A DNA stretch of 54,622 bases, the filler included, from Stramenopiles sp. TOSAG23-6 (Eukaryota): assembly GCA_900128565.1 (NCBI GenBank). It is 3 parts of 3 records of this genome, joined end to end, with 100 filler letters (N's around TTAATTAATTAA, not from the genome) between each part and the next. Parts side by side here need not be neighbours in the genome. Positions count along the whole stretch, not along the records: positions 1 to 18,294 come from LT636066.1; positions 18,395 to 36,472 come from LT636067.1; positions 36,573 to 54,622 come from LT636068.1. One strand, given 5' to 3'. Each line of letters starts with the position of its first letter. Positions within the stretch are counted from its first letter, which is position 1. Made by a program: the position numbers and the translations under genes. Shown here piece by piece: positions 1-54,622 of the stretch. The notes under the pieces were generated by a model. It was given only the letters and a program-made list of their open reading frames with translations. It had not been told where the DNA came from and ran no database searches.

Positions 1-76
1 AAAAAATTTGTTAGGTACAAAATTTCGTATGAAAAATAAATTCGATTTTTTTGTTTAAAAAAAAAATAAAACATGC
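1..76 (-). mobile_element. Introner-family copy, partial (3' end beyond window start), GC-donor variant
   Basis: Minus strand reads GCATGTTTTATTTTTTT...CATACGAAATTTTGTACCTAAC, matching the family except T>C at +2; it interrupts the 77..739 ORF. Confidence 0.85.
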
Positions 77-739
77 AGCTTTTTCTAACTTCAATAATCG
101 TTCACGCTGTCCCTTATTAGCAAATAGGGCGTCTTTGCCATATTCAAGGCATTTGGCTTCTTCTTCTCGGGCACTAGAAATCTTACCTGACGTGACATGT
201 TTCATACTTGCTGCATAAGAGTCGTCTCTCATTTTTTTACACCAGTCAACCTTATCTCGAAGTTGTTTTCTATGTTTTACATCCCAACAGCTTAGATAGT
301 GTACTAAAGGCTTTAGTAAGTAGTTTTCACCAAAGAGGGCACATTGAGCTTCTGCGTCGCCAGCTTGTTTAACATCTGCCTGGCATGCCTCAATCTGAGT
401 GCGTATCGTTTCCAAGATAGCCTCGTATGGTCCACCACGAGAATGAGACTCTAACTCGCGGACTTTTACGAGTAATTCGCCCAGTTGTGCACTTCCAGGA
501 GCGCGACGAAGAATCTCAACTAATTGTTCAGGATCCTGTTTTAATTCACCTTGCAAAACGACATTTGCAGCTTCTTCGTGTGCTGCAGCACTTCCTCCTG
601 TGGGAGTTGAGTTTACCTTTGCCGGTAAGTCTCCCGCACGTAACTCATCAGACGATTCTAAAACATCGCGATAAAAATTCTCTAAAATCACAGAAATAGG
701 CCCTAAACCAACTTCCTGGAGCATTGTTGATTCCTCCAT
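77..739 (-). CDS. Uncharacterised helical/coiled-coil protein, first exon only (partial)
   Basis: Protein-like portion of ORF 11..826 from MEESTM to ...LEKA; after that the ORF runs into the repeat (CFIFF...). Confidence 0.6.
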
Positions 740-1003
740 GTATGAACAATATTGAAACAATTCTTTCTGATGAGAGAATTCAAAAGGCAATGATGAAGTT
801 TTTTTTCTCCTTTTTGTTTGATGCAATAATTAAAATTTGATTATTATTTTTCATTTTTTTTTATTTGAATCTTCAGTTACACAGACGTTCCCGGGTACCC
901 GTGTATTTATTTGCGACGATGCAGCTTAGTTCCTCTCACTCAGGATCTCGCGACGAGATTCATTTCTATACAGCACACTCAAGAACAACAAACGAAAATT
1001 ACA

Positions 1004-1507
1004 ATGCGTGCTTCCTTATTTATAGTCATTGGCATAATAGCATTCGTCACTCCGTGGACAGAAGCAAGAAAAAAAACTGCAGATCCAAAGGATTGCGAAG
1101 TATGTATTAAGGTTTTGGAAGGAATTGAAGAGACCTTAGAGAAAAAAGATAGGAAGGAACTCACTGTTATGGAAAATAAGATCGAGAAGTATTGCAAAAA
1201 GAAGACTCTAGATCGGAAACAAAAGAAAGTATGCTACTACATCTTGCCAATCAAACGTGAGGTATCTAAACCATTGAAAATGCGAATGACGGCAAAAGAA
1301 ATATGTTCAAGAAAACTGAAGAAGAAAAGTGCTGACATCTGCTCAGTAAAGTACAAAGTAAAAACTACCGCTGATACGGACTACTCTAAGATGCGTGTCA
1401 AGCACCTCAAAGCTGTCCTCTCTGAACGCGGTGTTTCATGCACTGGATGTCTCGAAAAGACAGATTACGTCAAAAAGGCGATAGAAACTGCTCATATGGA
1501 TTTATAA
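1004..1507 (+). CDS. MANF: MANF/CDNF (ARMET) family ER protein
   Basis: Signal peptide MRASLFIVIGIIAF, saposin-like CEVC...CYYI...C...IC, SAP-like C-terminus with CTGCLEKTDY, and KDEL-like HMDL end. Confidence 0.9.
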   Translation: MRASLFIVIGIIAFVTPWTEARKKTADPKDCEVCIKVLEGIEETLEKKDRKELTVMENKIEKYCKKKTLDRKQKKVCYYILPIKREVSKPLKMRMTAKEICSRKLKKKSADICSVKYKVKTTADTDYSKMRVKHLKAVLSERGVSCTGCLEKTDYVKKAIETAHMDL

Positions 1508-1957: not shown

Positions 1958-2791
1958 TTAAAAATGTGTACATGAACCTACCAGTTGCCAACCCCAGTCG
2001 CCGAGTCTTCTTATTTTGAGAGATGGCCAACGATTCACCTGAATAAACTGACCTCTCACTCGTTTACCATCTTCAGTACGACTCTTTGTAAAACGCCAGG
2101 AAATATCTGGATAATCTTGTTTTATTTGTCTTTCAAGTTCTGTTTGTTGACTCTGCGATGCATTGACGATACTCCGCTGTCCATTAGAAATGGTAAATTT
2201 AACTAACATTGGACCAGGAAATCGATGATCACTTTGATCAACCAGAGAGTCTGTGGAAACTATCGGAGGAAAATACTTATCAGTTGTCCTCAAGGGATCA
2301 ACATACTCTGCAGATAAACACATTATTTCATCTTCGTCCATATTTTCTATTCGATCATCTAAGTCTTCGATCAAACTAATAGATGTTTGTAATTCCCATG
2401 ATGGGTCTAAACTTGTCCAGTATTGTCCAGCTTGAAGTTTGAATCGAAAGGCAAATATTAGTTCGCTAAAGTCTTCGTCACATAGTGTTTTTCTCATTGA
2501 ATCAATAGTTGCCTGAATAAAAGAATCTCTAGAAGGAGCTTTGCGAAACCGAAGTGGAACATAAGCCTTTGTATCCCATAATTTTGAACATATACTAAAC
2601 CACAAATAATCGGCGCTACATTCAACGAACCAGGCTTGATTTGTCGCTCCAAGCGAACAAAGGGCTTTCGTGTCTAAATAATTTTTCAATAAATGGGTAC
2701 ACAGATCACCTCCTAATGTACTAAGAGTATCTTCCATAGCAGTGGTACGCACTACACACCTCTTTTTCAATGGCTGAGGCATTGTGGTCAT
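1958..2791 (-). CDS. F-box-like protein
   Basis: N-terminal LGGDLCTHLLKNYLDTKALCSLGATNQAW...DYLW resembles an F-box motif; 277-aa ORF. Confidence 0.6.
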   Translation of the reverse strand: MTTMPQPLKKRCVVRTTAMEDTLSTLGGDLCTHLLKNYLDTKALCSLGATNQAWFVECSADYLWFSICSKLWDTKAYVPLRFRKAPSRDSFIQATIDSMRKTLCDEDFSELIFAFRFKLQAGQYWTSLDPSWELQTSISLIEDLDDRIENMDEDEIMCLSAEYVDPLRTTDKYFPPIVSTDSLVDQSDHRFPGPMLVKFTISNGQRSIVNASQSQQTELERQIKQDYPDISWRFTKSRTEDGKRVRGQFIQVNRWPSLKIRRLGDWGWQLVGSCTHF

Positions 2792-3263
2792 ATATTATTT
2801 GAAATATATCAAATGAGTGTCTGTTGCTCAGGACAGGAAGAACTCTCAAAACACAAGAATTAGTGTAGCATAATTTAATATATCCTGAAAATTTACGTGT
2901 GTGACAGTGACACAAGAAGGATTTAGATTAGGGTTATGACAGCACAGCAGATGCAGGTATAATAAATTCCAAATAATGGCCAAACTTTTGTGGTCACTTT
3001 TGGAAATTTCAAATTTGAATTTTTCTTTTGCCATCATTCATCATTGCATGAAAATTAAATCAATAAAGCAATGTATTACATTTTTGGAAAGTCTACAAAT
3101 TTATTCTTCAATTAATAAGTAATTTTAATTAAGTTCATAATTTTTACTTTAACAATCAAGAAATAAAAATTGCGTAGTGTAAGTCTGCGACTTCTTATTT
3201 GCCGGAGTGAAATTGGGGGAAATATGTACACTCGTTCCGACAGATAATAGCAAATGAATCCAA

Positions 3264-3866
3264 TTAGTTTCCACCACGGACAGCAGAAACGACTTGATCA
3301 CCACCCCACGCGGAAAGGCTCTTCTTCCACCATTCGACTTGCCCAGGGTCGACACAGCATCGAATCGATTTCATGTCAGCATGAGCCATAATTTTGACGT
3401 ATGATGGAAAGCAGTGACCAATGTGAGCATCCTAGGGTGTGTTTAGTTATATCTATTCAATATTGATTAGATTAGCATGAAATATGTATATGAAAAAAAT
3501 ATGTGTTTGCAAAATAAAGAATTGTGAAACCATTCGTGAAAGAAGACGAAGCATATATTTTTGGGAACTTACCATAACAGAAGGACCCTCCATATTGTCA
3601 AAGAAGAGCATTTCATCACCTTCAACGGAATAGAAAAAGGAAAGTTTTCCAGGGGTTGCCTTGGCAAATTTTCCGTAGCGATCAAGGTCGTCGAGCAAGT
3701 CATCCATTTTGTGACCTTCTTTCAGCTTGAGGGTGTAGTGCATGGAGCAAGGTTTGCCCTTTGGCTCAACACGACCTGCAGCAATAGCATCAACCGATTT
3801 CTTTGCTTGTGCTTCAGGTAATCCGCATCCTGTCAAGAATTCTACAGTAGGGCTTTCTTGGCTCAT
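3264..3866 (-). CDS. Small protein, possibly a dimeric alpha/beta-barrel (ABM-like); 2 exons 3866-3573, 3431-3264
   Basis: Splicing a GTAAGT...CTAG intron gives ...GPSVM|DAHIGHCFPSYVKIMAHADM...RGGN* (153 aa). The fold call is inference. Confidence 0.6.
3432..3572 (-). other. Canonical GT-AG spliceosomal intron (141 nt)
   Basis: Donor ATG|GTAAGT, CTAAT-like branch candidates, acceptor CCCTAG|GAT; phase 0 join restores an open frame. Confidence 0.8.
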
Positions 3867-4151
3867 TTTTATATACTTCTTCTTTTTACTTTCTTGAATT
3901 ATTGTATTCTTCGAATAAAATATGACAACAATTGGCTGTTAAAAGTGAAAAGAAGATTTTCGACAAGAAAAAAAAAATCTTTTAAAGCCAATTTTTGACC
4001 TCGACAAAAACACAAACCTGCTTTTGTGATCGAATCGTACGTTGTTGTTCAGCCAATTTTTATTGGATTTGAGATCAGCACGCACGTTGAATTCCTTCTT
4101 TAGTTTAGAGTATATAAGAAATTTTTAACTTGTTGGGCGTGATTTATCATC

Positions 4152-5393
4152 ATGATAGACAGCAAATTTCGTTTAGCGAAGAAACTCGACGCTTTCAAAA
4201 AGGCGAAGATTGAATCTGGATTAAAAGTTACGCTCAAGGAGCACGTTGATGAAGAAGTCGACAGTGTTTTGGTAGACTACATCCTAGTAATGATTCAAAA
4301 TCGTCAAGACCTTGGTCATATTGAGAAGGCTTTGAAGGAACTTATTCCAGAAGCCCAAGCCTCTGCAGTGGTGACATGGATTTACGGTGCTTTAGAGCCT
4401 TTTAACGGCAAGAAACTTGAAAGTCGTTCAGGGAGGAGGTCGCGCGATGAAAGACGTAGAAGTAATAGTAGAGAACGCTACAGAGAACGTGATCGTGATT
4501 ATTCACGACGAAACAACAGAACAAATTCACGACGGCATAGTCCGCGTCGCAGTCCACGGCGACACAGTCCACCCCGACGTGATCCACCCCGACGTGATCC
4601 ACCTCGACGTGATCCACCCAGTCCACGAAATGATTCAAGACATCAATCCAGTAAACGAGACGATGGAACGCGTTTAGACCTGAATGCTCCACTTACCTCT
4701 CGTGCCCTTAGACGAAATAGTACTAAACGTAAACGTGAATTGGAAAAGAAAATGGGTATTGATCTAAAACACGCTAATCCAGGGCCTTTGTACGATGAAA
4801 ATGGAAAGGAAATCCCTGATGAATCCTACGATGAAAATGGAAATTTAATCCCCAATAGTTCATCCGCAGTGGAGCTTGCTGAGTTTAGTGAAGCTCCGTA
4901 TCATAAAAAGTTTATGACGGCTAGAGGCAGAGGTAGAGGTAGAGGACGTGGCAGAGGTAGAGGTAGAGGTAGAGGTAGAGGACGTGGCAGAGGTAGAGGT
5001 AGAGGTAGAGGGCGTGGTAGAGGGCGTGGCTTTAAATCATGGTCAACTTGGACATCAGAAGATGGAGACACGTCTGAAAATAATGAGGTAAAAGAAAAAG
5101 TTTCGATGGATACTGCTCTGAGTACTGAAAGGACCCCAAAGTCTGAGTGGGTTTCTTTTGAGGGTGGTCGAGGTAGAGGTAGAGGGCGTGGCAGAGGACG
5201 TGGCAGAGGGCGTGGCAGAGGTCGAGGGCGTGGTAGAGGTAGAGGTAGAGGAAGGGGCAGAGGTTTAGTAGGTTATGGCAGTTTTAAAAGTATGACTTGG
5301 ACCCTCGGTGTGGATGATGAGGCATCTGCTAAAACGCTGTCAGACACTTTACCAAGTACTCCGCCGCGTGTAGATAATGAAGCTACAGAATGA
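4152..5393 (+). CDS. PWI-like domain RNA-binding protein with RS/RP-rich region and two long RG-repeat tracts
   Basis: N-terminal VDSVLVDYILVMIQN...LKELI...VVTWI resembles PWI/Nab2-N; RSRDERRRS/RRHSP repeats; two (RG)n tracts. Confidence 0.75.
   Translation: MIDSKFRLAKKLDAFKKAKIESGLKVTLKEHVDEEVDSVLVDYILVMIQNRQDLGHIEKALKELIPEAQASAVVTWIYGALEPFNGKKLESRSGRRSRDERRRSNSRERYRERDRDYSRRNNRTNSRRHSPRRSPRRHSPPRRDPPRRDPPRRDPPSPRNDSRHQSSKRDDGTRLDLNAPLTSRALRRNSTKRKRELEKKMGIDLKHANPGPLYDENGKEIPDESYDENGNLIPNSSSAVELAEFSEAPYHKKFMTARGRGRGRGRGRGRGRGRGRGRGRGRGRGRGRGRGRGFKSWSTWTSEDGDTSENNEVKEKVSMDTALSTERTPKSEWVSFEGGRGRGRGRGRGRGRGRGRGRGRGRGRGRGRGRGLVGYGSFKSMTWTLGVDDEASAKTLSDTLPSTPPRVDNEATE
4920..5264 (+). repeat. Two coding (RG)n hexamer arrays (about 4920-5030 and 5165-5264)
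   Basis: AGAGGT/AGAGGC/CGTGGC units; each array is followed by a similar FKSxxxWT/FKSMTWT peptide. Confidence 0.9.
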
Positions 5394-5505: not shown

Positions 5506-8500
5506 TCATATTTCTGCTAGACCAAAGACATTATCTGGTTTTCTGAGCGATGTCACATGAGCCACAACACATCGCGATAGTGCTGATCGTTTACCATCTG
5601 TATTATAACCACCTTCTAAACATGAAATAAGGCGCCCGTTGCATGCCGCACCAGGTCTCTCTGCTACCTGAAGAACTTGACGAGTAACCCATGCAATATC
5701 ATGTTCTCGCAAGCCCAATTGACCTCCGAGAGGATCCTTTGTGTGTGCATCAAACCCAGCAGAAATGAATATTACTTCAGGATCAAAGTCTAAAAGTGCC
5801 GGAATCAATTGTTTTTCTACAGCCCGACGCCATCCAAGTCTTCCTCGGAGTTCCTTGCTCTCCTCTCCTGATGATCCATCTGGATCGCAGCAATCATCTA
5901 TATCCATTCCAGAATTTTGTTTTGTTGCATTTTGAACTGGGACAGTACTTAGTTTTGTTGCATTTTGAACTGAGCCAAAGCTAGATTTTCTACCCGATTT
6001 TTTACTTCTCGAGGAAGAAGGCGAAATCGCCTTAGAAATAGAACTCCTAAATCCACGTGAATTCCCTACGTTCAATGATGATGGATTATGAAAAAATATT
6101 TAAAAAAAAAAAAACTAAAATTTGTTAGGTACAAAATTTCGTATGAAACAAAAATTAGACAAAAAATTGAAATGAAAACGTACATGGAGACTGTAGTGAT
6201 GACGGTATTAATGTTTGATTTGATTCCAAATTTGACTTCTGTACATCTTTAGGGGGGAGAATTCGAATAGTTACATACGACTGTTTTCGTTCATCTTTCA
6301 CATCGTATGGGAAAAACTCAAACGGTGCATCTGGCTCATTGCACATATGAATAGATGAGAAGAAAGCGTTTTTATCATGTTTGAGGATTTCTGCGGTACC
6401 ATTGCCGAAGTGTACATCAATATCTACAACAGCTACTTTAGTAATTCCCCACCGAATGCGCGAGTGTGTAATACCTAATGCTACATTATTTAGTAAACAA
6501 AATCCATGTGAAGTACACAACTGAGTACATCCATCCATTCCAGCATGGTGGCCTGGGGGGCGTATGCAACAGAAAACATTGTTGCTTTTGCCAGACATTA
6601 CAAGATCAACAGCTTGGCAAACAATCCCTGCAGCTTGTAATGCAGCAATTGGAGACATACCAGATACAAATGTATCGGTCGGATCGTCCAACATTTCTAA
6701 TGCTGCAGCCTCGGCAATCTCCTTCTTTGTTTTTTTCTTATTTTTTTTACTTGTACTACTAGCAAAAGATGTTGAGTCTTCTTCATAGCCTTCACTACTC
6801 GAAATGTTTAAAGAACCATCTGAAGTCAATTCTGTAGAAGATTTCCGAGTACCATCGACGCTATTCAATACTATTTGGTCTATACTTGATTCATCTATAC
6901 TTGTATCATTTTCATCAAGGTTCATCGGATTATTTGAAGTGTCATTGAGATTCTTATTACTCGTATTTATAAATTCAAGATTCCGTTGTGTTTTCAACTT
7001 GCTCAACATAATTAGATTAGATGGATCATTTGCAAACAACCAACACTCAACACCAGGATTCATAATTAAACTTTTGTAGTCTGTGTCACTTGAAGTTTGT
7101 GGAAGAAACTTAAATCGGTGTCGACCATCTACACTGTCGAATTCCATCACCTTTGCAATCTGCCACATCCCCGTAACTGCCTTGGACAAATATTTTTCCG
7201 TTTGGCTATATCTTTTCTTACTTGTTTTCACTCCCGTTGCTATTCCATCAGGCGAAAACTTTATCTCGTTGCTAGGAAGCTTTCGAGACCAATCCCATAG
7301 CCATATATCAACAAATCGGCCTACAAGATTCGATCCAAGCGGAAGCGAATTTGATTTCATTAAAACTCTTGCTTTATCTTTCGTGTCTATAGGATCAGCC
7401 CAAAGTTTGAATACGTTTGTTGACCTCATCACAAATGCTTCGAAACTATCAAGATCTTCTTTTTGTATTTTATCTGTATTTTCAATGCTATTTAAGTTCA
7501 AATCTTTCACAATGTGACCTATGGGGGGCTTAATTAAGATTGAATTGCTCAAGTTCTGATCGGTACTCGGCTTTATATCCACAGAAATTGTATTTGGCGT
7601 TGAAATTGACTCATTTTGTGAACCTTTTGGTGGTAATAACAGAGGTTCCAAGGGAATTGGTTCTGAACTTCGATTGCGACGTGCTATAGATGCAGTGTCG
7701 CGTAAATGTCCTAACCAAATTGGAGAGTGTATTAGTAAGATAGTCAATGGAGATGGTAAGACTAATTTACTTTCCCCTTCTGTAAAATGTAAAAATTCGG
7801 CCTCCTCTGTAATAGTCTCAATGCTACTTGAACGTTTCGGTCTTATTTCTGGCGACGAAGAATATTTTTCATTGTGTNGTGACACTTCGGACTTCAGTTC
7901 TGATGCGCTCAAATTTGAATTTGATCGAAGACGAATATGTCGTGACTCAGAATAAACTGTGTCTGAATTTGATTGAGAACGGGTAAGATGTGACACAGTA
8001 TCAAGTACATCTGAATTTGATCGAGTACGACTTACATTCTCAGGATTTGCGCTTGAACTTGAATAAGAACTAGAGTTTGAACTCGATCGAAGAGATCGAG
8101 TTACTTTAGACGTATCTGTAGTATTGTATCCTCCGCTGTCGCTTATAAGCGTAGGAGGTGGCGTTACATTAACATTGTTAAGTAAATTTTTTGATTTGCT
8201 CTTATACCTATTCGATGCGTATTGATGAACAAATAATTGACCAGTTCGAAGAGTAAATGTTTCAGCTTCTTCAGGAGGGTATGCACTAGAATTAACACCT
8301 CGTGATTTATGCGAAGAAGTATATTGTGGAAGTGGATCCAAATTAAGGATTGCATCCATGCTTTTAAGAACTCGTGCTGGTGTTTCTGGAAATCTATCTG
8401 GCAATCGGTGGCGTAAAGTTCCCGCGTGATATAAAACTGTAGTTGTTCTTAAAGAGTCTCCTGCACGAAGAATACCATCCCGAGAACCTGGATGCGATAA

Positions 8501-15516: not shown

Positions 15517-15829
15517 CTTAATTTACAATATACTTTCAATATATATATTGCTCTGGTAATCAGAATGCTCGAATGCAAAGTTACCGTTTGTGGGCAAGTA
15601 CTCCGAACGAATCTAATCTCATTCGCGATTTCTGTTGTAACAGAATAACGGCAGTCGAGTCCGAAGAAGGACAAAAAACAGGTTTGTCCAAACGATAAAC
15701 GGTTCAGCGAATTTGCTATTATGTAATCCTAATCTATTTAATATCGATACCATTGCGCAACAGTAATTTACAGTAGATTCGATACTGTGTAAAACTTTAG
15801 CTAACGATAAGTCTAAAGGCGTTCAAAAC

Positions 15830-21504: not shown

Positions 21505-21543
<39 letters not shown>

Positions 21544-37761: not shown

Positions 37762-37859
37762 AGTCTGTCAGGTACATGTATTTTCAATTATACAGTGTTT
37801 TTTTTTCTATAAATTTAAAATTAAAACCCCAGATATAAGTTTTTTATTTATTCCAATCA

Positions 37860-39969: not shown

Positions 39970-40243
39970 AAAGAAAAATAATTAGATTACAAACCAAGAA
40001 AGTCGCGAAATGACGTGGATTGTATCATTTAGCTCTATGAATAAGAATAATATTGATATCAGCTACAGTATATAGGTCAAATAGGTCAAATAACTTACGT
40101 AGACTATCTATTATTAGAAGTATAATATAGCTAGGGTTAGGGTTTTCAAATTAACGTACAATGTTAACGTAGATACTCCAGGTCTCTAGCTAGAAGTTCC
40201 TCAATAAGATTTAGATTGAAACAATATCTTTTCATGTCCAGTC

Positions 40244-41569: not shown

Positions 41570-41747
41570 GCTATTGAGGGTTAGTGTTAATGATAATCCA
41601 TGTAATGCGATTCGCCCCTTTTTTTAACATATAGTCAACTCAAGCTAACACATTCGGATATATGGTTGAGATTCCATTCATAAATTTATAAATTCAATTT
41701 CAAGTATATTTTTTTTCTTTCATAAATGTAACGGATAAAAATCAATA

Positions 41748-44700: not shown

Positions 44701-45125
44701 TTGAAGATCGGGAAAAACAAAGTAGATATAAATATGGTGTCACTTGGAATGGAAAGATTAGAAAATGGATGGCCCGGGTTCGTACAAAAGAAAATACAAT
44801 GAAACTTCTTGGCTATTTTAATCTCACGGAAGAGGCAGAAGCTGCTGAAACTTATGATAAGGCTGCAATAGAATTATACGGCGAATTTGCATTGACAAAT
44901 TTTCATACCCCTGATTCAAAGAAAGAGAGTCGGTTTGAGTATGGAGTAACCTGGAATGATAGAAAAAAACGGTGGATGTCACAAGTCATTACTCCTCTAA
45001 ATAAGATTCAATTAATTGGTCTCTTTGAAGAATACGATGAGTTGCGAGCCGCCAGGGCTTACGATAAGGCAGCAAAACAATTATATGGCAAAGATTACGA
45101 AAAGTTAAACTTCCGTGTATTTTAA
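41748..45125 (+). CDS. WW + ankyrin-repeat + tandem AP2 domain protein (true start may be near 41852)
   Basis: WW: DWYSQVDIETGKVFYLNRWTGKTTWEMP; 4-5 ANK repeats (TALHYAC, TALHMVC, TPLHFAV, TPLQVAA); AP2: YGVTWN...KWMARV...LGYF...AAETYDKAAIELYG...TNF, twice. Confidence 0.88.
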   Translation: MTSSVLLYSRAIRGYTTTTRNIFSTLQSSILQRKWMSKMKRLQPSCQVEPLKHNLKSPALTTQVFQRRYAPNARANGGTRPNTIRKWQQSPGNWTAWKDVPHPVDKIHLPKKSKNISKYNSAFYGGLDKLNSKIKLDQEGFLRFPPEPHIDHNKETDKISDRVEKAVKDXKAMPRRVLKGDWYSQVDIETGKVFYLNRWTGKTTWEMPAVLVEAIEEAKVEAQKQYCRKEAADDAAARRKAIVNNEIKLPISPLKRPFTRRWKKTNERGDGVPAEEFEEANKVVNTNPRAGSIPDWRRFTKKXEPWTVPGTDKLYEGTTTRWQATWKPLRPRPLKKEGVIKQVTRLTDMMSIARNQDYDKLVETLASGDVSSTINDQCEGGISALHFACSAATPGDPVSEEILKILLFFGADIHATTDSNKTALHYACETGNIDLVKRLIEAGARIDGKTTSNMGKGGETALHMVCERGDKHLARLLIDQGADINTTSDCGMTPLHFAVHNNAVDIVKMLIIEGANFDLKDTTGRTPLQVAADREYIDIKNHITELQFRRALKTCKGACSVVTGTQGSCTIHCNCQHYRQSTRRYYCVCGHIMFTHNNPPKTAVVTQQESLKKELSLPETLAKRKAEIRKLPNLEXAHSKMRRRKRKERTRNKLEQKENKHSEHREIDNTLVRKRLEEIRAVENGKGITPPQIXEGKKMIHSIRVSQPLIPDERLAELMGIDSKXKPDINSTQFRPPTGHKERTGSRRRSTLVLETRGDNNNTHIDTPICEKRVSSRHGLPGSRAGSRSGRRPLSGRRRPFSGRGRPISARQQIMDSLLSQFGGGIDEVEVDGDIFAEFAEFAQQEDDDSLEQQQLITLGNSTLGCNASKQQSRTVSRRSTISTDTYDSLDSFVSSRSSSRGRKNKAPSKGSRNKTKKKRPASRRTQALMFQQRARFTFWSGLEYTIHPVTGKKVPISQSSRGWEGGHWAPGREVDRLGADPEEFEDREKQSRYKYGVTWNGKIRKWMARVRTKENTMKLLGYFNLTEEAEAAETYDKAAIELYGEFALTNFHTPDSKKESRFEYGVTWNDRKKRWMSQVITPLNKIQLIGLFEEYDELRAARAYDKAAKQLYGKDYEKLNFRVF

Positions 45126-48200: not shown

Positions 48201-51200
48201 GCCATCCTTCCGATATACCTTTACTAGGCGAGTATCCATCGGTAGGATCTACTTCAGTATTAGAAGGCGCATCTGGTCGAGCTATGCGAGGAGAGTTTCC
48301 AGAATTACCATTCGTTTGATACGGTGTAGCCACAGTCCATGTACCTGGAACCCATTTATTTGAAGTCCAAACAGCGCCATGACCATTGCAATCGTTTTGC
48401 GGTGTCACGCCTAAAATATCAACAGGATCCGTGCACAAACCGAGAACTTCGCATTCAGTTTTTATCGATGGTCCATATGCAAAAGCACCCGATTGAACTA
48501 TTGTTTCATAATGTTGCTGCACATCTTTCGATGCCGCATTCCAAATACCTCCAGTAGAAGCTACTCCAACCTGAGTCTGACCTTCTGGAGGTTCATTGCC
48601 AACGGAATGCCAAACACCTGATGCAGCATTACACTCTGTTTCTGACAAAGCTGCACGACAAACTTCATTGGAGAAGGGATATCCACCACTACCACTTTCA
48701 AAAGGACGCCCTGCTTCATCCGTTGCAGCTTCCCAAACACAACCTGGAACATTTTCACAAGCTGTTGCAGTAGTGCGATTTTTCACAGCTCGACATGCAT
48801 CTTCTGAAGAACAATATCCAGAACCACCAGCTTTAGGGGATTTCCCCGGTGGTGTTGCGGCATAATACACCAAAGAGTCTTGAGCCTTTGCAGTGGACTG
48901 TCTCTTCACCTCTGAAGAACTCTGTGCGACACAAATACCACATTGTTTTTCTAATAATGCACCAGCACCAGCACCGGAGCATTCCCCACCTTCATCCGGA
49001 CCTGCATGACACCGTACAAAGAATTGATCGCCGCTGGTTATTTGTGTGTTTCCAAATTTATCCACAGCTTGAACCTTTACTGGTGATGCAACACCGGCAA
49101 CACCGTGAAACAAACCAATTCCTGTAGGCTCGCTTTTCCCAGGATTTGTGGGAGCTGGTCGCACAGTCAATGAAAATGGACTACCACTAACTCCGACTGG
49201 AACGTCACTAATCGTAACAGTGACATCTATAGTATGAAGCCCAGCCCTTGTAGCTGTATATTTTATCATCCAAAGACCATCTTGAAGGTACTCAGCATTA
49301 CCCGTGACAATACCCCCATTACTGGAATCTACAGTGCCTGCTTTCCATCGTGCATTTCCCAGATGTGTTAATGTTATACCAATTGTATCGGTCGAAGAAC
49401 TTCGTTTATTTCCCCACGTATCCCTTAGTTGAACGAGAAATGTCTGTTCAAAGCCTGCTTGTGCATCAGAAAGACCGATACCTGAGGCAGTACTTGTACT
49501 GCTTACTGGAACACCATCACTGACATCAACTGTGAATGGCGAACCTACAATGTTTACGTCATTGGTTTTTACATAGAGTAAACGCTTTCCACTGGACGGT
49601 GCATCATATGAACATGTATACTTGCCATCTGTTGTATAAACGACATTTCCGGTAACAAGTGTAGCATCATCTTTGGCAATTTCTACTGTTACAACGTCAC
49701 TATTGGATGGTTCTAATATAGCATTAGAATGCAAATCTCTACCCTGGACTTCGAATGTTTGTACAACTCCAGAAGTCGCGGTGCTTATACCTACTCCTGT
49801 GGCAGTACTCTTTTCATGTAACACATTAGGTGCGACATTCACAGTATATGGACTCTGAGCAATGTGCTCAGGTGAATAATTTTCGTAACTTCCAATATTA
49901 CCTGCTACTTTACGAGCAGCGAAAGAAGAAGCTGTTCCAGGGGGAACATCGACTACAACATGTAGTGAATATACACCTCGCTTCTCTGCTACGTACGCAC
50001 AGTCATATTTCCCATTCCCTTGGTCATAGACCCAGCCACGATGATACACACCCGAACCTACATGATATGCAAAAACACGAACTCGTTCATTCCCCTCAAA
50101 TTTCCGGTTGTGTACATGGTCACGTAATCGCACAGTGAAGGTAGCAGTAATTCCAGCAGTCGCCTGTGAGAGACCAACACCCCAAGCATTGCTCGTCGCA
50201 CCACGCGTGACCCCAGGCCATACGCGCAATTCAAATGGCGAACCCTCAATTCCTTTTAATCTACCACTTGGGTCTGCAGCACTGACATATAAATCGTATT
50301 TGCCACTAATTGGAATTGTAATTGATGCCACATGGTCGCCTTTCGCCCCTACAGAATCCTCAGGAGGGTCCGTAGTTAAGAATTTATACGAACCTTTTAC
50401 AAATTGTGAACCATCACCCCCACCTCCTTCTCCTACTAACACAGCAATAATCGAGAATGAGTCCGAAGCACCGAGCATCCCCCGATGATTTCCATAAATA
50501 TCATTAGATAGGATAACAAATTCATGTGCATTTCCAGCATATTGTTCACTCAAAGATCCACCGATTGCTCTTGACGAAGGACCAACTAAAGGACCCGGTG
50601 CAATGGTTATTTGATATGGCGACGCACCAGCAACATTTCCAACTCTCACACCCGATCCCAATGAATGGAGCGACCACAATCTATATGGTTGCAATACACT
50701 GCGAGCAAGAGAACTGGAAGATAACTCAATACGCAGAAAAGCATCACCTGTTATATCTCTATATTCCACGCGAAAGTCGTGGAATCCAAACTCCATAGCT
50801 ACGACACGTTCTATGGTAGTTGTACAAGGTGTATCCCACATATCTATTAGTAGAATATGATCAAGCCAAACTCGCACATTATCATCCGCCGTAACATAAA
50901 AATGATAATCTTCAATTGTAACCAGAGGAACATATAGTTTTCCTGTCCATCTGGCCGAAACAAAGTCTTTGCTATTTGGAGTAATTCTATCACCTGTCCA
51001 ATTAAAATTGAGTGTTCGATCAATACGATCTACGACTGCTGGACCTTCTAACCAAGGGTTGTCAAAGTATTCCCCTCGAAGTCCATCTTTCTTAGCAAGC
51101 ATTACAGATAAATCATAATTACCAGCACGTTTTGGAAGATATTTACAATCATATTGTCCAGCGGAATCAAATACACATGGAAATGTCGGGTTTCCAGTGA

Positions 51201-53016
51201 CTGTATCTCGTAAAACATCTAGTGGAGGAAATTGTCTTCCAGAATGCCAGGGCACTGAATCAGACTGATCTTGAGCCGATCCATATGGTACATTTAGTTC
51301 AATGAAGAAAATCTCATTTGACGCGAGTTGTCCAGTTAATTGTTCAGTTGAATCGAACGCAGTGATGCGCACATTTGACTCGACCCCAACAGTAGCACTT
51401 ATAGTCCCGGCACCTTCAACAGTACATTTTGGTGGATTAACTGCGACATCCTCATCATCTAATATTGTGATTATAGCCCGTCCTTGTGGACCAATTTGTG
51501 CTAGCGAAGAATGACCTGAAGTATTACTGCTGTACAAACCAGGATCATCATGTACATTGTATAACCTGACTAGAAATCGTTCATTTCCTTCTAATTCAGA
51601 ATCGTCATTAATAGTAACACGAAATGTGAGTTCAACAACTCCCTCGGTAAAGTCAAGTATTTGTGAGCCTGTATAAAATGCAGTTGGAGTGATATCTGAA
51701 GAATTTGTAGTGATATGTTCGATAGAGTACACAACTCGTACACTTCCATAACCACCTCCACTTCGGCGAACCGTGAGGGGTATATATCCAGCAGTTTCGG
51801 ATATTTCATATGTTGGGGATGAAAATGTTATAACACCTTCATGACCACAAACCATATGTGAAATTGCACTTTCAGTACATTCCCAGAGATGATCTTCCTG
51901 GGTTCCTTGAGTACACGTCTGTGATGTAGTTTTCAAAGGGTATGTCGTGGCAGCTACACCTCGTTTTGGAACACGATATGTTTCAGCTCCAGCAAATGCA
52001 TCAGTATGTTTTGATCCAAATGGTAGAGTTATCGGTAATTCCCTCACTACTTCATCAAATGGAAGTGGAAAATCTCTCTGGCGATATCCCGAACGATGTA
52101 TTGATCTTAATATGGGGTCTGCACACTCAAGACAGCCAATATGATCACATCTAAGACAACGTGGATCGAATGTTGAGCATGGTAGACAGTCACCAGCATC
52201 TGGTGATGTTGGTGGTGCTACATAATGACCTTCAATACACTCAGTGCAAACAGAACTAGTGCATTCAGTACATAAAGTGCCATGAGTAGAGCATATATGT
52301 TTACTACAATTTACATCAACGAAACCTTCATAGCACGAACATAACCCGGTAGTGTAGTCACAATCACCCGCACCGGAGCAGTCTAATGGGCAACTCTTTT
52401 TAGGATGACATGTCACCTTATTCGTTGTGTCACGGTAGTAATGAGGAGCGCATTCTCCACAACTATTTCCTTGGTACCCGGTTTCACAGAAGCATGACCC
52501 TGAACGTCTGTCACAATAGCCAAATTCTTTGCCACGACAAAAATATTGACCATTAACGGGACCAACCATTTCAGGGCAATTTTGACGTGGATGTACTCCA
52601 TCATATAATACAGATTTTGTGACAGAGTTACCAGCTCCTTGGTTAACTCGAGTACGTTGAGGATTCGTTGTCACGCCGTATTGACCTACAAAACCTGGTG
52701 CATACGCTTCAAATTTTGGATCATTGGATTGATTATTCGCATCGGTATATCGGTATGCTGTTGTTACACCAAAAATTTCAAATACAATAATCAATATAAG
52801 TATGTTCTGACAGACTGAGATGTATCTAGGGAAAAAAGCAGTTGAGTGAAATTTCCTGTCCCTATTATTATTGGAATGACTACACTTACTTGTACTTGTA
52901 GCAAATACGATTCTACTTTTACCTACATGAGATAACTCTTGATTCATGTTGTTTACTAATATAATACTAGAATATATAAAAGAAAAAATATGTTCAAGTC
53001 TGAATCTCTTGACCAA
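45280..53016 (-). CDS. ~2500-aa secreted/surface protein: EGF-like repeats, Calx-beta, many filamin-type Ig repeats and three PA14 domains; no introns seen
   Basis: CSGAGDCDYTTGLCSC; FSSPTYEISETAG...RVTINDDSELEGNERF; repeated S-A-G-G...F...RD..GN...GSPF; GLRGEYF...FVSARWTG-type PA14 x3. The start is probably downstream of 53016. Confidence 0.85.
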   Translation of the reverse strand: MVKRFRLEHIFSFIYSSIILVNNMNQELSHVGKSRIVFATSTSKCSHSNNNRDRKFHSTAFFPRYISVCQNILILIIVFEIFGVTTAYRYTDANNQSNDPKFEAYAPGFVGQYGVTTNPQRTRVNQGAGNSVTKSVLYDGVHPRQNCPEMVGPVNGQYFCRGKEFGYCDRRSGSCFCETGYQGNSCGECAPHYYRDTTNKVTCHPKKSCPLDCSGAGDCDYTTGLCSCYEGFVDVNCSKHICSTHGTLCTECTSSVCTECIEGHYVAPPTSPDAGDCLPCSTFDPRCLRCDHIGCLECADPILRSIHRSGYRQRDFPLPFDEVVRELPITLPFGSKHTDAFAGAETYRVPKRGVAATTYPLKTTSQTCTQGTQEDHLWECTESAISHMVCGHEGVITFSSPTYEISETAGYIPLTVRRSGGGYGSVRVVYSIEHITTNSSDITPTAFYTGSQILDFTEGVVELTFRVTINDDSELEGNERFLVRLYNVHDDPGLYSSNTSGHSSLAQIGPQGRAIITILDDEDVAVNPPKCTVEGAGTISATVGVESNVRITAFDSTEQLTGQLASNEIFFIELNVPYGSAQDQSDSVPWHSGRQFPPLDVLRDTVTGNPTFPCVFDSAGQYDCKYLPKRAGNYDLSVMLAKKDGLRGEYFDNPWLEGPAVVDRIDRTLNFNWTGDRITPNSKDFVSARWTGKLYVPLVTIEDYHFYVTADDNVRVWLDHILLIDMWDTPCTTTIERVVAMEFGFHDFRVEYRDITGDAFLRIELSSSSLARSVLQPYRLWSLHSLGSGVRVGNVAGASPYQITIAPGPLVGPSSRAIGGSLSEQYAGNAHEFVILSNDIYGNHRGMLGASDSFSIIAVLVGEGGGGDGSQFVKGSYKFLTTDPPEDSVGAKGDHVASITIPISGKYDLYVSAADPSGRLKGIEGSPFELRVWPGVTRGATSNAWGVGLSQATAGITATFTVRLRDHVHNRKFEGNERVRVFAYHVGSGVYHRGWVYDQGNGKYDCAYVAEKRGVYSLHVVVDVPPGTASSFAARKVAGNIGSYENYSPEHIAQSPYTVNVAPNVLHEKSTATGVGISTATSGVVQTFEVQGRDLHSNAILEPSNSDVVTVEIAKDDATLVTGNVVYTTDGKYTCSYDAPSSGKRLLYVKTNDVNIVGSPFTVDVSDGVPVSSTSTASGIGLSDAQAGFEQTFLVQLRDTWGNKRSSSTDTIGITLTHLGNARWKAGTVDSSNGGIVTGNAEYLQDGLWMIKYTATRAGLHTIDVTVTISDVPVGVSGSPFSLTVRPAPTNPGKSEPTGIGLFHGVAGVASPVKVQAVDKFGNTQITSGDQFFVRCHAGPDEGGECSGAGAGALLEKQCGICVAQSSSEVKRQSTAKAQDSLVYYAATPPGKSPKAGGSGYCSSEDACRAVKNRTTATACENVPGCVWEAATDEAGRPFESGSGGYPFSNEVCRAALSETECNAASGVWHSVGNEPPEGQTQVGVASTGGIWNAASKDVQQHYETIVQSGAFAYGPSIKTECEVLGLCTDPVDILGVTPQNDCNGHGAVWTSNKWVPGTWTVATPYQTNGNSGNSPRIARPDAPSNTEVDPTDGYSPSKGISEGWPMRGYAGRTPAEEDGLVYTLGSQLSMYARASQTSRSCVDTNLGSCDVPEILLSNLGDSTGKYEGTWTPQVQGDYECDVVMASPGGLYGEYFDVEDLGAPKPGISKNGESRLSYNDSGNPTSLRNPNSSQSGLVHSQIDPVIDFAWEKSPHFDILPGLENIIGWDRFSIRWSGFIQPLFSELYTLTVHIGSDDGIRIFIDDLLVIDSWSKNSLWSNTNNEERIQGTGSSVMKSSTNVLLTAAKLHKIIIEYRDLTGIAAVKLQWRSASQQVQVVPASQLYSEAPLLGSPFRPTIESAQTDPRKSFAKGSGIVVATAAIETKFVIDARDAFGNHRHIGADKWTVVATLTGGGRPDLIANTCKGTSKATCDKGYDSHQCTLDTSCEWKSDTLVDGSRPCVGAECCSAILCSADIFQNNKNRCNSAPGCAFTDAGPYGNNSTWKRWDSRFGGGGSGDGADENASFIASVEDTNDGFYTVRYTPKLSGLYQLHITMDDSSISATSKTILAAQGKFAIDEFARSGTRHIQGSPFLLVVSDGQARGSLSTASGDGISRAMTGVEYTFTVTLRDVNGNERLVEDQLTVLLKHSTGWQQVKGVTSYLGAGKYNVAYTAQKSGVYSMNISVATENXEENISKSPFSLYVEPNAASGSGSTVTGGALTTVQAGTLASFKIYAGDANSRFPSTLPHGEQENSTNAVNQRTSEQEKDVFAVRISGVHVYNLWAKPSPIIDPNGQSCSDGHCRPGGGEYIVQWNVRVPNESSPNSSSNPHLISITLARDPGLLAEYFSNAFFQGSPTKISLEPNIDHDWQFSPLLYADGSGLLNYVSIRWKGLVRAEYDADYIFSATIREGDHMRVRIDSVWVLNNWPVAMIDDGSNGGSLDDNISSNGTLEPLVEISGTAIHLNEGALYDIYVEYRDNRGAATAQLSWMAGTAKKNRDSLSGIVLPKEIVPNRLLWSREENIVGSPFTTSVTPAST

Positions 53017-53187
53017 AATTGGTCAGAAATGACATAAAACCTATAATAATAAACTGGTGGAATGATTGAAGATGAGTAATTCCGTTGAAACAGTTTATTT
53101 TGACGGTTTCATTAATCAAAAGATGGTACCCGGTTCCCCTTTTTACAATAATTTTTACTAAATCGTGGGTGAATTTTACATTTTGCA

Positions 53188-54559
53188 TTACNAATTCACC
53201 CCCTTTTTTTCACGCATCCATGATGGAACATACCCTTCCGTAATTTTATTAGTTTTATCCAAAGTTTCTTGTGGCGTTGTTGTATTCTGCTGATATTTGT
53301 TCATTTTTTGTTGTTTTTTAATAAATTGTTGTTTTTCATATTCATCAAGTCTTCGTTCATTTTCCATTTCTTTTCGCTGTAGCATTTGTTCCTTTCCTTG
53401 ACGACTTGAAGGATCCCACGGGCGATACTCAATTTGTTTTTGATTCTGTTGTTTTTGTTGTTTTTGTTGGTTTTGAAGGTCTGGGGGTATTGGCTGGTGC
53501 AACTGTTGTGGAATTGGCTGACTTGGTGGAATTCTATTGTGTTGCTGAACTTGGTGAATCTTATTATTTTGCTTTATACCAAAAAACGATTTATTCGTTT
53601 TTTTAGATTTTGTACCAAACTTATAATTCACATGTGGTTTCCTTCTTCGCCAACCAGGTTGACGGTCATAAATTTGACCAACACCAAATCCAGGAAATAA
53701 ATCAACTGTTTTTTGTTGGTGTTTTTTGGGAACATTATTCTTTTCTTCTAAATAAGTACCTTCCAAGTCATTATCATTTATATCATTAGGATCTACTCGT
53801 ACAATGCCAGCTGCTGCTTCAACCGTATCTTGATTTTGGCTGACAAAATCAATAGCAGAGGATCGGTCTACAAATGTTCTTGGAATATCGCCTCGTTCTT
53901 TTGCTTGTTTTGTAAGAGCAGGAATAGTATAAATAGTAGTTGTTTCACCATCATCCATTTTATACATTTGCATTGCATCTTTACGTACAAAAAACGTAGG
54001 ATTGAACTCTGCGTCAAGTGCAACTAATTGCTTTTTCATTTGTGAATTTCTGCCTCGTATTGCACCATAATTCTTATTTTTCAGATGAGGAATTCCAACT
54101 CTACCGCTCATATCTGACATCTTATCCATGATTGTAATATCAGTATGATGTATTGCTAGAATTTCGAATAAATATGCATCACTATGACAAATCAATGCAT
54201 CAGGGTAAATATCATCGATATCATCTACACCATTGCCGAAAGGGTTTCCCATTTTTAATGTAAGCTTTCGTGACATTAGAAATGCGAGCGTCGTAAAGAG
54301 TGTTGCAAACACAGGGACTATCTGAAAAGATGAACCTGGAACATAACAATGAAACGCATAACTGAATGGACACAATAAAATTGCCAAATCTATTAGAAAT
54401 AGATGAAAAATACCAAAACCATCTGGCTGTATTTGATAAGTCCAATATACTGTGTAGAATATTTTTGTTGTAAAAAAAAATTATGAGGTGCAAAAATTAC
54501 CATGAAAAAAAACAATTTGAAATTAATGATGAAAACATACATGGTCGTGTAGTTCATGC
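53188..54559 (-). CDS. Bestrophin-like membrane protein, C-terminal part; exons 54559-54541 (19 nt), 54444-53188
   Basis: Two hydrophobic helices followed by KMGNPFGNGVDDID (bestrophin NPFG..DD motif) and a long Q-rich tail. Confidence 0.6.
54445..54540 (-). mobile_element. Introner-family intron (96 nt, GT...AT, flanks AT/AT), diverged copy
   Basis: GTATGTTTTCATCATTAATTTC start, branch motif decayed to CCTCAT; removal gives HELHDH|WTYQIQP. Confidence 0.7.
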
Positions 54560-54622
54560 ATGTATTTTGGAAAAATATTTCAAAAAAACCCGTTAGGTAC
54601 AAAATTTCGTACGAAAAAAAAA
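54560..54622 (-). mobile_element. Introner-family copy, 3' part (5' end beyond window end)
   Basis: CGTACGAAATTTTGTACCTAACGGG...AAATATTTTTCCAAAATAC-AT. Confidence 0.85.

Follow-up and report, generated by a model that had tools for sequence, protein, structure and literature searches.

A repeated transposon-like element that may act as a spliceosomal intron with a canonical 5' splice site and no 3' AG in a MAST-3-like marine stramenopile

The window analysed here is the whole 54,622-nt stretch of DNA from Stramenopiles sp. TOSAG23-6, made of three parts joined by artificial linkers, and it carries genes encoding GCN5, a transportin, an SLC12 transporter, a sugar porter, ABCD, BT1 and Band 7/SPFH proteins, as well as giant genes, one of them with a histone deacetylase domain. 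These genes share copies of one short element. Its 16-nt core motif is matched 29 times in the window, counting both strands of a palindrome, against 0.10 matches expected, and none of 100 shuffled controls reached this number. A search profile built from eight copies recovered 23 distinct loci at E<0.01 and three weaker ones; after inspection, the element occupies 26 loci in 54.6 kb (17 complete copies, eight truncated copies and one intergenic fragment) and is hosted by at least ten unrelated genes. The family is real and lies far above chance expectation, with pairwise identities among copies of 55–93%. The initial annotation had described about 24 copies of 91–113 nt; the family stands, although the count rises to 26 loci and one of the complete copies, at 149 nt, falls outside that length range. 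Interruptions of coding sequence in phases 0, 1 and 2 had also been described, and each phase is found among the complete copies. The sense orientation claimed for all copies holds for 24 of the 24 with a known host strand, a count that leaves out one copy lying between N runs, whose host strand is not assignable. Common antisense or intergenic copies had been named as evidence against an intron family; within the window they amount to none of 24 and a single fragment, respectively. Truncation is due to an N gap, a linker, a break or an end of the window, and the artificial linkers sit within element copies. Curated covariance models of structured RNAs, including group I and group II introns, gave no match at the gathering score in the whole window.

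The intron was defined by one rule, which starts it at the G of GTAYGT and ends it two bases beyond AATAC. Under this rule, 16 of the 17 complete copies begin with GT, 14 end in AT and one each in GT, TT or AC, and the final base is T in 16; no copy of the 17 ends in AG in any register that yields the same product. The earlier tally for 15 copies (12 AT, one GT, one AC, one TT and none AG) was reproduced, and the conserved GTAYGT and CTAAC are present in the family as described. Two further complete copies, at 22307–22455 and 38789–38879, lie beyond those 15. The termini form an inverted repeat (GTAT.../...ATAC) with a central palindrome between them. The 5' consensus is CAT/GTATGTTTT (slashes mark borders and junctions throughout), and a second subfamily reads GTACGTTTT. 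When 16 window copies and a copy from an independent metagenome contig, L001, were aligned, CCTAAC lay 33–46 nt from the 3' end in 15 of the 17 rows, the other two having no match and a wrong match at 70 nt, and the tail after CCTAAC was 20–61% T. Diverged copies keep three blocks, namely 5' GTAYG, GTACCTAAC and 3' CA.AATACAT, while the left arm of the palindrome decays, a pattern that would be expected under splicing constraint.

The two nucleotides after AATAC, given only as NN in the first reading, which missed the match, are in 13 of the 17 complete copies a copy of the two exon bases before GT. The cut sites in these 13 copies are ambiguous because the resulting 2-nt direct repeat, usually AT within C-AT-G, spans the borders, and equivalent readings are GT-AT, TG-CA or, in eight copies, AT-AC. 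For the copies with a direct repeat, the sequence thus fixes what removal leaves behind but not which bonds are cut.

In GCN5, a 109-nt copy (36151–36259, plus strand, GT..AT, phase 1) leaves the junction NCDL/Y/DIPGVRESGW, which agrees with homologues; the public model P0001, which allows canonical sites only, mis-splices this copy, reads into the element and loses the conserved DIPGVRE. The exons of GCN5 are matched by a protein model that carries the label MAST-3, a marine stramenopile, and the 5' part of a second GCN5 copy (36421–36472, plus strand) is cut by the linker. The transportin gene contains a 113-nt copy (21965–22077, plus strand, GT..AT, phase 1), at which residue 502 of chain 2qmr_A is the last upstream, 503 falls on the junction codon and 504 is the first downstream, and a diverged copy of 149 nt (22307–22455, plus strand, GT..AT, phase 2), whose internal AG would shift the frame if used. 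The 5' half of another transportin copy (22519–22570, plus strand) likely ends at an assembly join, since the 3' end of a minus-strand gene follows it abruptly. Removal of the 108-nt SLC12 copy (19117–19224, minus strand, GT..AT, phase 2) gives a junction, IFGVI/M/FLRTGFMVGQAG, that is gapless against a solved NKCC1 chain, and the 5' part of a further SLC12 copy (18680–18731, minus strand), preceded by the exon bases GT, is cut by a 227-N gap.

The sugar-porter contig starts, right after the linker, with the 3' part of a copy (36573–36609, plus strand), and three complete plus-strand copies follow. For the first of these (36718–36813, 96 nt, GT..AC, phase 0), a GT further upstream, at 36712, keeps the frame just as well, and homology favours neither. 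The second (36989–37080, 92 nt, GT..AT, phase 1), which is without a direct repeat, gives a junction that is gapless against nine homologues. The third (37370–37466, 97 nt, GT..GT, phase 2), with the direct repeat GT, gives the gapless junction TTG/V/NWGANL, and around base 37465, next to its 3' end, AG is absent for 45 nt upstream and 44 nt downstream. On the minus strand of the same contig, the ABCD copy at 39200–39305 (106 nt, GT..TT, phase 1) leaves the junction WFT/Y/KLSTITS, gapless against homologues. The ABCD copy at 38956–39058 (minus strand, 103 nt) starts with ATACGT, and none of its registers (TA-CA, AT-AT, TA-TA or AC-AT) opens with GT; its junction is likewise gapless against ABCD homologues, and use of an alternative AG 6 nt downstream would come at a price of only two residues. 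The 91-nt copy at 38789–38879 (minus strand) has ABCD as its upstream exon and BT1 as its downstream exon; its frame is not truly restored because the two exon frames do not fit, and it most likely represents two copies collapsed by the assembler.

The giant gene with a histone deacetylase domain carries two minus-strand copies with GT..AT ends in phase 1, one (6081–6183, 103 nt) with half of the domain on each side and the other at 14710–14801 (92 nt). Four more GT..AT copies interrupt the giant gene at 22526–35080 on the minus strand, at 23539–23631 (93 nt, phase 1), 26121–26218 (98 nt, phase 2), 27137–27235 (99 nt, phase 2, diverged) and 30666–30759 (94 nt, phase 1). In copies within proteins that have no homologues, a nearby in-frame exonic AG, such as those at 14701 and 23518, could conceivably be used. 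Close to the window end, a diverged copy (54445–54540, minus strand, 96 nt, GT..AT, phase 0), in which use of a CAG 5 nt before the end would shift the frame, is parted by a 19-nt exon (54541–54559) from the 3' part of another copy (54560–54622, minus strand) that is cut by the window end. The 5' part of a copy at 5–76 (minus strand; host ORF 77–829, minus strand) is cut by the window start and begins with GCATGT, i.e. with a GC 5' end, GC being the commonest tolerated 5' variant among major-type introns. The 5' part of a copy in the Band 7/SPFH gene (18242–18294, plus strand) is cut by N44-linker-N44, and the 5' part lying between N runs (18395–18449, minus strand) is 95% identical to the SLC12 piece at 18680–18731. 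The only intergenic piece in the window, a degenerate fragment with palindrome, CTAAG and AAATAC (17208–17240, minus strand), lies between two plus-strand genes.

Removal from GTAYGT to the second base past AATAC leaves exactly one open phase at all 17 complete copies, and this phase fits the host gene at 16, so that the frame restoration claimed at the outset is borne out except at 38789–38879, where ABCD and BT1 exons meet. Seven junctions (GCN5, SLC12, transportin, two in the sugar porter and two in ABCD) are gapless to the residue against homologues, and the removal product at these conserved junctions is exact at residue level. The motifs that removal was said to restore (DIPG, EAACS, IFGVIMFLR and VNW) do reappear, the ABCD motif in the form HAEAIA. 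An AG downstream of the branch motif is present in seven copies, where its use would shift the frame in six and add ten codons in one; five such copies had been counted earlier.

The same structure recurs in the independent contig L001, where a copy in another gene has the borders CAT/GTATG...CACAATACAT/G as in the window, and its removal brings back the reading frame. In addition, a seawater metagenome DNA contig (X2, record 14) bridges the exon–element border 39199/39200, the 3' border of the ABCD copy at 39200–39305, by the 31-letter criterion of the tool and at this one border only; the element therefore exists in DNA outside the present assembly. It has to be considered that the host genes are dead, or that the insertions are assembly or amplification artefacts, and that nothing is removed at all. 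The assembly is indeed fragmentary, copies are interrupted by linkers and N runs, and at least two wrong joins have been made at copies, but long intact ORFs flank every copy with one open phase each, seven junctions in conserved genes are gapless, all 24 assignable copies are sense, and both L001 and the border found in another DNA run fall outside this assembly, which leaves the idea with very little probability. The X2 contig, in which the element is retained beside the exon, also speaks against excision from DNA in an expressed nucleus, as with the internal eliminated sequences of ciliates, rather than from RNA. The element is short, bounded by direct repeats and precisely excised, and its borders look like transposon ends; nevertheless, the strict sense bias and conserved splice-like motifs, borders of AT (C-AT-G) rather than TA with a TAYAG consensus, and the assignment of the lineage to stramenopiles by its nearest proteins, a group in which we know of no nuclear dimorphism, make such excision highly improbable. 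Among the RNA contigs listed for three RNA runs, none bridged a splice junction within 37017–41166. In some RNA-library contigs, element sequence runs on into dissimilar flanks, which is expected from unspliced RNA or library DNA and gives no sign of splicing.

On the evidence of sequence, the copies are probably spliceosomal introns of the introner type that combine a canonical 5' site and a CTAAC branch motif with a 3' end lacking AG, and they would have to be cut out of messages at ends that break the usual rule. The element would be a miniature transposon-like (MITE-like) sequence working as an intron, or 'introner', each copy of which brings its own yeast-like 5' splice site, GTAYGT, and the branch motif CCTAAC. 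Most likely, the major spliceosome would remove the copy from the pre-mRNA between the G of GTAYGT and the second base past AATAC, the intron then ending in AU, or rarely in GU, UU or AC, in place of AG. We infer that removal takes place on RNA and by the spliceosome. We know of no established mechanism for an AU 3' end in the major spliceosome; the 3' site may be measured from the terminal AATAC or from its helix with the 5' end. The terminal inverted repeat and the 2-nt direct repeat (13 of 17 copies) point to a MITE-like origin, and transposition that duplicated 2 bp of the target may have dispersed the family; no empty site, autonomous element or insertion polymorphism was seen. The first interpretation, of a GT plus CTAAC intron class without AG, its acceptor set by AATAC and its copies spread by transposition, is partly supported.

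The ambiguity of the borders admits another spliceosomal reading, in which the true termini lie 2 nt upstream, the introns are AT-AC introns of the major or minor type, and GT...AT only seems to be the border because of the direct repeat. Moving to register -2 leaves the product unchanged and yields AT-AC termini in eight of the 17 copies, and first-base A with last-base C is the compensating pair of AT-AC introns reportedly described by Parker and Siliciano in 1993. This register, however, yields AT-CC, AT-GC, AT-AT (twice) or GT-AC in five further copies and is impossible in four, whereas at register 0, 16 of 17 copies have GT at the start and 16 of 17 have T as their last base. Pairing of U1 and U6 with GTAYGT would, moreover, set the cut at G. 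U12-type AT-AC introns have the 5' site RTATCCTT and the branch site TCCTTAAC about 10–20 nt from the 3' end; the family resembles them in its non-AG 3' ends and in the AT-AC register of eight copies, but it has the 5' consensus GTAYGTTTT, no RTATCCTT and no TCCTTAAC near the 3' end, and its branch-like CCTAAC lies 33–46 nt away. Termini 2 nt upstream are consequently held to be quite unlikely.

A further alternative is removal from RNA by a non-spliceosomal machinery that reads the terminal helix and cuts both strands with a 2-nt stagger, as proposed for the nonconventional introns of euglenids. Five core terminal pairs hold in 13–16 of the 17 copies, and the minimum-energy folds of younger copies contain the terminal helix, pairing (c)AU-GUAU with AUAC-AU(g) over both junctions with the cut sites 2 bp apart. 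Paired cells amount to 76.9%, against 74.4% in shuffles (a level reached by 7 of 500) and 24.8–56.9% in slid controls, although related sequences without structure can exceed the shuffle control, and RNAalifold gives no consensus structure. One copy lacks GT, and the Euglena signature sets borders by a ruler from terminal pairing with an offset of 2–3 nt (PMC12501133). On the other hand, a signal confined to the helix is symmetric and leaves the 24 sense copies out of 24 unexplained, as it does the retention of GTAYGT and CCTAAC while the palindrome arm decays. Judged from the consensus, GTATTT...CATACAT and the terminal helix would survive in an antisense copy, and only CTAAC and the T-rich tail would be lost; symmetric termini combined with strict sense bias therefore argue for an internal signal on one strand, of the kind that the spliceosome needs. 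Non-spliceosomal removal is thus regarded as unlikely, and spliceosomal removal of the copies with GT...AT borders is preferred.

The loss concerns the 3' AG alone, the yeast-like 5' site and branch motif having been kept, and the family would therefore offer a clean natural test of AG-free 3' site choice. No ordinary GT-AG intron is needed for any of the window genes looked at, and the family may therefore form most introns of the genome. It is possible, if on balance doubtful, that nearly all introns of this MAST-3-like lineage descend from one transposon family and are processed by a spliceosome without the AG rule, the 5' site and branch point being textbook and the 3' bond being chosen by a 2-nt ruler from the helix of the intron ends. 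Pairing between the two outermost bases of the intron could then occur, these being G and U in 15 of the 17 copies, A and U in the copy starting with A, and G and C in the copy ending with C. Recognition of the 3' site in the second step would in that case have been rewired naturally, by a route separate from that of Fritillaria. To our knowledge, transposon-born introns with broken border rules are confined to a few lineages (Fritillaria, Amoebophrya, euglenids and diplonemids). If the spliceosomal reading is true, a heterotrophic marine stramenopile would be added to them. Gene models restricted to canonical sites would be misled at other copies as at GCN5, which would have consequences for the protein sets on which phylogenomics and functional inference for little-studied, uncultured marine protists rely, and element copies also break and mis-join the assembly.

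The introners of Micromonas and Aureococcus were reportedly recognized by Huff et al. in 2016 as MITE-like DNA transposons turned introns. Introners of aquatic protists are described as MITE-like DNA transposons that become introns (PMC9860276, PMC11282704). The present family resembles them in its many short and similar copies within unrelated genes, with terminal inverted repeats and a short flanking repeat, in which the element would supply splice signals and removal of the element with one repeat restores the coding sequence. In contrast, the introners described there have canonical GT(GC)-AG borders, one site often coming from the target duplication, and duplications of 3–4 or 8 bp (PMC9860276, PMC11282704), whereas an AG end is found in none of the 17 copies here in any register and the putative duplication is 2 nt.

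The introner elements of Amoebophrya are non-canonical introns with inverted repeats of 8–20 nt and direct repeats of 3–5 nt across the borders (PMC7789003), against 2 nt in 13 of 17 copies here. Both sets are repeated, non-canonical, without transposase and hosted by marine protists, and in both the ends can pair and a direct repeat over the border makes the cut site ambiguous. Amoebophrya differs in having many families and no dominant terminal dinucleotides, while the window has one family, with GT in 16 and AT in 14 of 17 copies, that keeps GTAYGT and CTAAC and is aberrant only at the 3' end. The nonconventional introns of euglenids carry the signature 5'-N3CDG...CH'GN5-6/R (PMC12501133), and they share terminal pairing that joins the ends, borders at fixed offsets and border repeats resembling target duplications (PMC11282704). 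Their signature was tried and rejected for the present family, in which positions +4 to +6 are YGT rather than CDG and the 3' block reads AATACAT; there is no CAG/CTG signature, and GTAYGT, CTAAC and strict sense orientation are present instead.

The non-canonical introns of Fritillaria borealis are MITE-derived, mostly AG-AC and AG-AT, and processed by the major spliceosome with diverged U2AF paralogues (PMC13326754, PMC11282704). They bear the marks of a transposon (terminal inverted repeats and target duplications), end in AC or AT, are processed despite a broken AG rule and dominate the intron set, traits that the present family would share. Fritillaria, however, is an animal, its introns depart from the canon at the 5' end as well (AG), and its changed U2AF has been studied, whereas the family described here belongs to a stramenopile and keeps a textbook 5' site and branch motif.

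The initial annotation had described a dispersed family of elements lying within coding sequence, and this description was borne out, as the 16-nt palindromic core has 29 matches in the window against 0.10 expected, and a profile built from 8 copies found 23 distinct loci at E<0.01 together with three weaker ones. After inspection of each place, the family amounts to 26 loci: 17 complete copies, 8 copies truncated at gaps, at linkers, at a break or at the window ends, and a single degenerate fragment between genes (17208-17240). The originally proposed length of 91-113 nt holds for 16 complete copies and fails for one of 149 nt. Pairwise identity among copies is 55-93% (median 68%), with a young subfamily of the form GTATG...CCAAAATAC (76-93%) and an older one of the form GTACG...TCACAATAC. 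In alignments (borders marked by slashes), the consensus opens with CAT/GTAYGTTTT and an A/T-rich stretch, continues with the palindrome CGTACGAAATTTYGTAC running into CCTAAC and a tail containing 20-61% T, and closes with AAATATTTTTYCAMAATAC-AT/G, the distance from CCTAAC to the 3' end being 33-46 nt. Older copies have a decayed left arm of the palindrome and have kept GTAYG, GTACCTAAC and the 3' block.

The copies interrupt the genes at the window start and end, those for Band 7, SLC12, transportin, GCN5, an ABCD transporter, BT1 and a myo-inositol-type sugar porter, a giant gene carrying a histone deacetylase (HDAC) domain and another giant gene of ~4,100 codons. The reported sense orientation is confirmed for all 24 copies with a recognisable host gene; the other two loci are a copy between N runs and the fragment at 17208-17240, the only intergenic piece in the window. 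Transportin carries three copies inside ~600 nt, and a 19-nt exon (54541-54559) is sandwiched between two copies. No ordinary GT-AG introns were found among the genes examined in the window, where the three inspected gaps between open reading frames (52960-53260, 41500-41800 and 2760-3500) look intergenic, and the family may account for most introns of the genome. Scans of the window yielded no Rfam matches and no tRNA genes.

A single rule, under which each copy is removed from the first base of GTAYGT through the second base after AATAC, left exactly one open phase in 17 of 17 complete copies, with phases 0, 1 and 2 all represented. The claim that removal restores the frame was borne out for 16 of the 17, the misfit being 38789-38879, and the seven junctions that could be checked against homologues are all gapless to the residue. 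These are the GCN5 junction (NCDL/Y/DIPGVRESGW), the SLC12 junction (SIFGVI/M/FLRTGFMVGQAG, compared with residues 298-317 of NKCC1), the transportin junction (matched in unbroken order by residues 502, 503 and 504 of chain 2qmr_A), two sugar porter junctions compared with 9 homologues and two ABCD junctions compared with 5. Both ABCD junctions are gapless when the family rule is combined with the right frame for exon 39059-39199, which homologues support at 77% identity. The other frame of this exon was rejected, and with it a 101-nt AT-AC intron at 38956-39058 and a 105-nt GT..CT intron at 39200-39305, both of which rested on it.

At 38789-38879, the upstream exon encodes ABCD (HAEAIAAYNGG) and the downstream exon BT1, and their true frames are incompatible; this copy is most likely two copies collapsed by the assembler. 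The third sugar porter copy (36718-36813) may have its 5' site at 36712 or 36718, and homologues are gapped by 5 residues there. The HDAC copy sits in a long insertion that places profile positions 183 and 211 ~120 residues apart, and what it supports is the order in which the two halves of the domain follow each other. For the transportin copy at 22307-22455, alternative in-frame 3' ends exist at 22443 (..GC) and 22440 (..TA). The end at 22455, tentatively preferred under the family rule, costs 4 residues against the human transportin sequence. A PDB search with the 20-residue transportin exon gave no match. No near-identical spliced proteins were found, the best match to the BT1 exon reaching at most 49% identity.

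For GCN5, the sole match above 68% is the public EukProt protein P0001 (GSMAST32.ASY1.ANO1.152.1), which is 97% identical over the exon, while the next-best matches, oomycetes and other protists among them, show 49-68% identity. On the strength of these nearest proteins, the organism is treated as a MAST-3-like marine stramenopile, and the sequencing runs sharing words with the window are marine. Compared with window positions 35310-36423, the P0001 gene model, the one public model compared, imposes a canonical intron, runs on for 16 codons inside the element and omits the conserved DIPGVRE; it also lacks the conserved RWQGFIK encoded in the DNA, a second model error in the same gene. The ABCD homologue P0228 carries a 22-residue insertion (residues ~75-96) at a conserved position of the membrane domain, absent from the other four homologues and from the window, which could be the read-through of an unrecognised intron in another organism's model.

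The ends of the copies depart from the AG rule, as the initial annotation had stated. The 17 complete copies end in AT (14 copies), GT, TT and AC (one each), and an AG end is absent from every product-equivalent register, that is, from every shifted pair of cut sites leaving the same spliced product. The 5' end is GT in 16 of the 17, the exception being 38956-39058, which begins with AT and lacks GT in any register; the cut copy at 5-76 begins with GC. It had further been claimed that an AG downstream of the branch motif would shift the frame in five copies. The frameshift itself was confirmed and the count revised: such an AG occurs in 7 copies, of which six would be frameshifted and one, in transportin, would gain 10 codons at a place where this protein aligns without gaps. 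At copy 37370-37466, AG is absent from the 45 nt before and the 44 nt after base 37465, which adjoins the 3' end. Where a copy sits in a protein that has no homologues, an in-frame AG in the exon nearby is possible.

The borders also bear marks expected of transposition. In 13 of the 17 copies, the dinucleotide after AATAC equals the last dinucleotide of the exon ahead of GT (AT in 12, GT in one), and the four copies without a direct repeat are among the more diverged (nhmmer scores 25-54). Upstream, the exon has T at -1 in 16, A at -2 in 13 and C at -3 in 9 of the 17 copies, and the base following the copy is G in 7. These biases amount to a palindromic C-AT-G context, as would be expected if a transposase duplicated 2 bp of its target. 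Owing to the 2-nt repeat, an identical product results from GT..AT and TG..CA termini and also, in 8 copies, from AT..AC termini; a shifted register with AT-AC termini is therefore conceivable, albeit quite improbable, since a uniform rule across all copies was obtained solely with the register of the family rule.

The copies are probably removed by the spliceosome. This reading is favoured because the family retains a strong 5' site and, at a normal distance, a branch motif of the CURAY/yeast type, because both have outlasted divergence, and because all 24 copies with a recognisable host gene are in sense orientation despite symmetric ends: an antisense copy would retain the GTAT.../...ATAC termini and the helix, losing the internal signals alone. 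Non-spliceosomal excision guided by the helix is considered unlikely. The termini form inverted repeats, five core pairs being kept in 13-16 of the 17 copies, and in minimum-energy folds of younger copies the helix spans both junctions, with cut sites 2 bp apart. Covariation is weak, as 5-15 of 500 shuffles attain the observed values and kinship alone can produce such scores without structure, and RNAalifold found no consensus structure in the copies. Of the 17 copies, 16 end in U and 15 have A as the penultimate base, and pairing of the first and last bases is possible in all 17 (G-U in 15, A-U and G-C in one each), which is a pattern rather than a test. The sequence gives good support to the interpretation in the initial annotation; for RNA, this interpretation is a prediction.

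The family was also encountered elsewhere. Metagenome contigs scanned for the exact 21-nt core gave one locus, on the minus strand of an independent contig (L001, 2475-2578), where the copy lies in an unrelated gene, has the same borders as in the window (CAT/GTATG...CACAATACAT/G) and restores a frame on removal; beyond the element, this contig has nothing in common with the window (blastn, E 1e-5). A scan of viral contigs gave no matches. That the interrupted genes are dead or the copies artefactual is scarcely credible beside this independent copy and the restored frames. Elimination from the DNA is equally hard to credit; a contig from a seawater DNA run spans the exon-element border 39199/39200 with 124 and 66 letters, and two further contigs of this run enter copy 37370-37466 by 29 and 21 letters, below the 31-letter criterion. 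When the stretch 37017-41166 was compared with three RNA runs and this DNA run, the listed RNA contigs covered exon interiors only (e.g. 37152-37363 and 38205-38680) and none reached a junction, so that removal from RNA is what we infer; the joints listed in this comparison were rejected as other family copies matching two places. In the DNA run and two RNA runs, contigs numbering from hundreds to thousands match parts of the element and then pass into unlike flanks; the family is therefore present at many loci in these samples. Summed depth is far greater over element parts than over exons in DNA and RNA runs, with a lower ratio in RNA, these sums being measures of neither copy number nor expression.

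The repeat has also shaped the assembly. The window (G+C ~36%, with very long open frames in the standard code) contains 420 N, among them a 227-N run at 18453-18679 and those of the artificial linkers at 18295-18394 and 36473-36572, in each of which TTAATTAATTAA is flanked by 44 N on either side. On account of these blocks, the window is regarded as contigs joined into a scaffold. The 227-N gap and the two linkers all fall within element copies; the assembly is broken by the repeat, and unrelated contigs are joined, e.g. GCN5 to the sugar porter. A plus-strand half copy in transportin (22519-22571) passes directly into a gene on the minus strand at its 3' end, and the joins there and at 38789-38879 look false.

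Other features of the window include three very large genes: one at 5506-15522 (~3,300 codons, its histone deacetylase domain lying close to the end), one at 22526-35080 (~4,100 codons; in the four of its five ORF pieces that were scanned, no Pfam match exceeded the curated threshold) and one at 45280-53022 encoding an extracellular-type protein with PA14, Calx-beta, filamin and EGF domains. In a single long ORF at 41739-45125, a WW domain occurs together with ankyrin repeats and an AP2 DNA-binding domain. Coding tandem repeats of 12 nt occur at 21345-21518 within the transportin ORF (read as His/Gly/Ser) and, of the GAGGTAGAGGYR type, at 4894-5287 in ORF 4143-5393 (read as Arg/Gly).

The family is of clear interest for studies of intron origin and 3' splice-site choice, and has practical weight for annotating this MAST-3-like lineage. 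No earlier description was found in the literature; the supplementary species tables of introner surveys, which lay outside the search, might list the lineage. The available portions of PMC5778133, bioRxiv 10.64898/2026.04.17.719054 and PMC12614181 do not mention non-canonical or repeated introns, the word 'stramenopile' is absent from those of PMC9860276 and PMC12130899, and 'MAST' from those of the latter. Large introner surveys take annotated introns as their starting point (PMC9860276). Transposon-derived introns are well described (PMC9860276; reviewed in PMC11282704), and non-canonical introns have been reported as introners in Amoebophrya (PMC7789003), in Fritillaria borealis, where they are mostly AG-AC and AG-AT and accompanied by a diverged U2AF (PMC13326754; PMC11282704), and in Euglena (PMC12501133). 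The present family shares with these non-canonical, transposon-derived introns the marks of its origin and the broken AG rule. Unlike in Amoebophrya, Fritillaria and Euglena, its 5' site and branch motif have stayed canonical, its repeat measures 2 nt and its host belongs to a different lineage.
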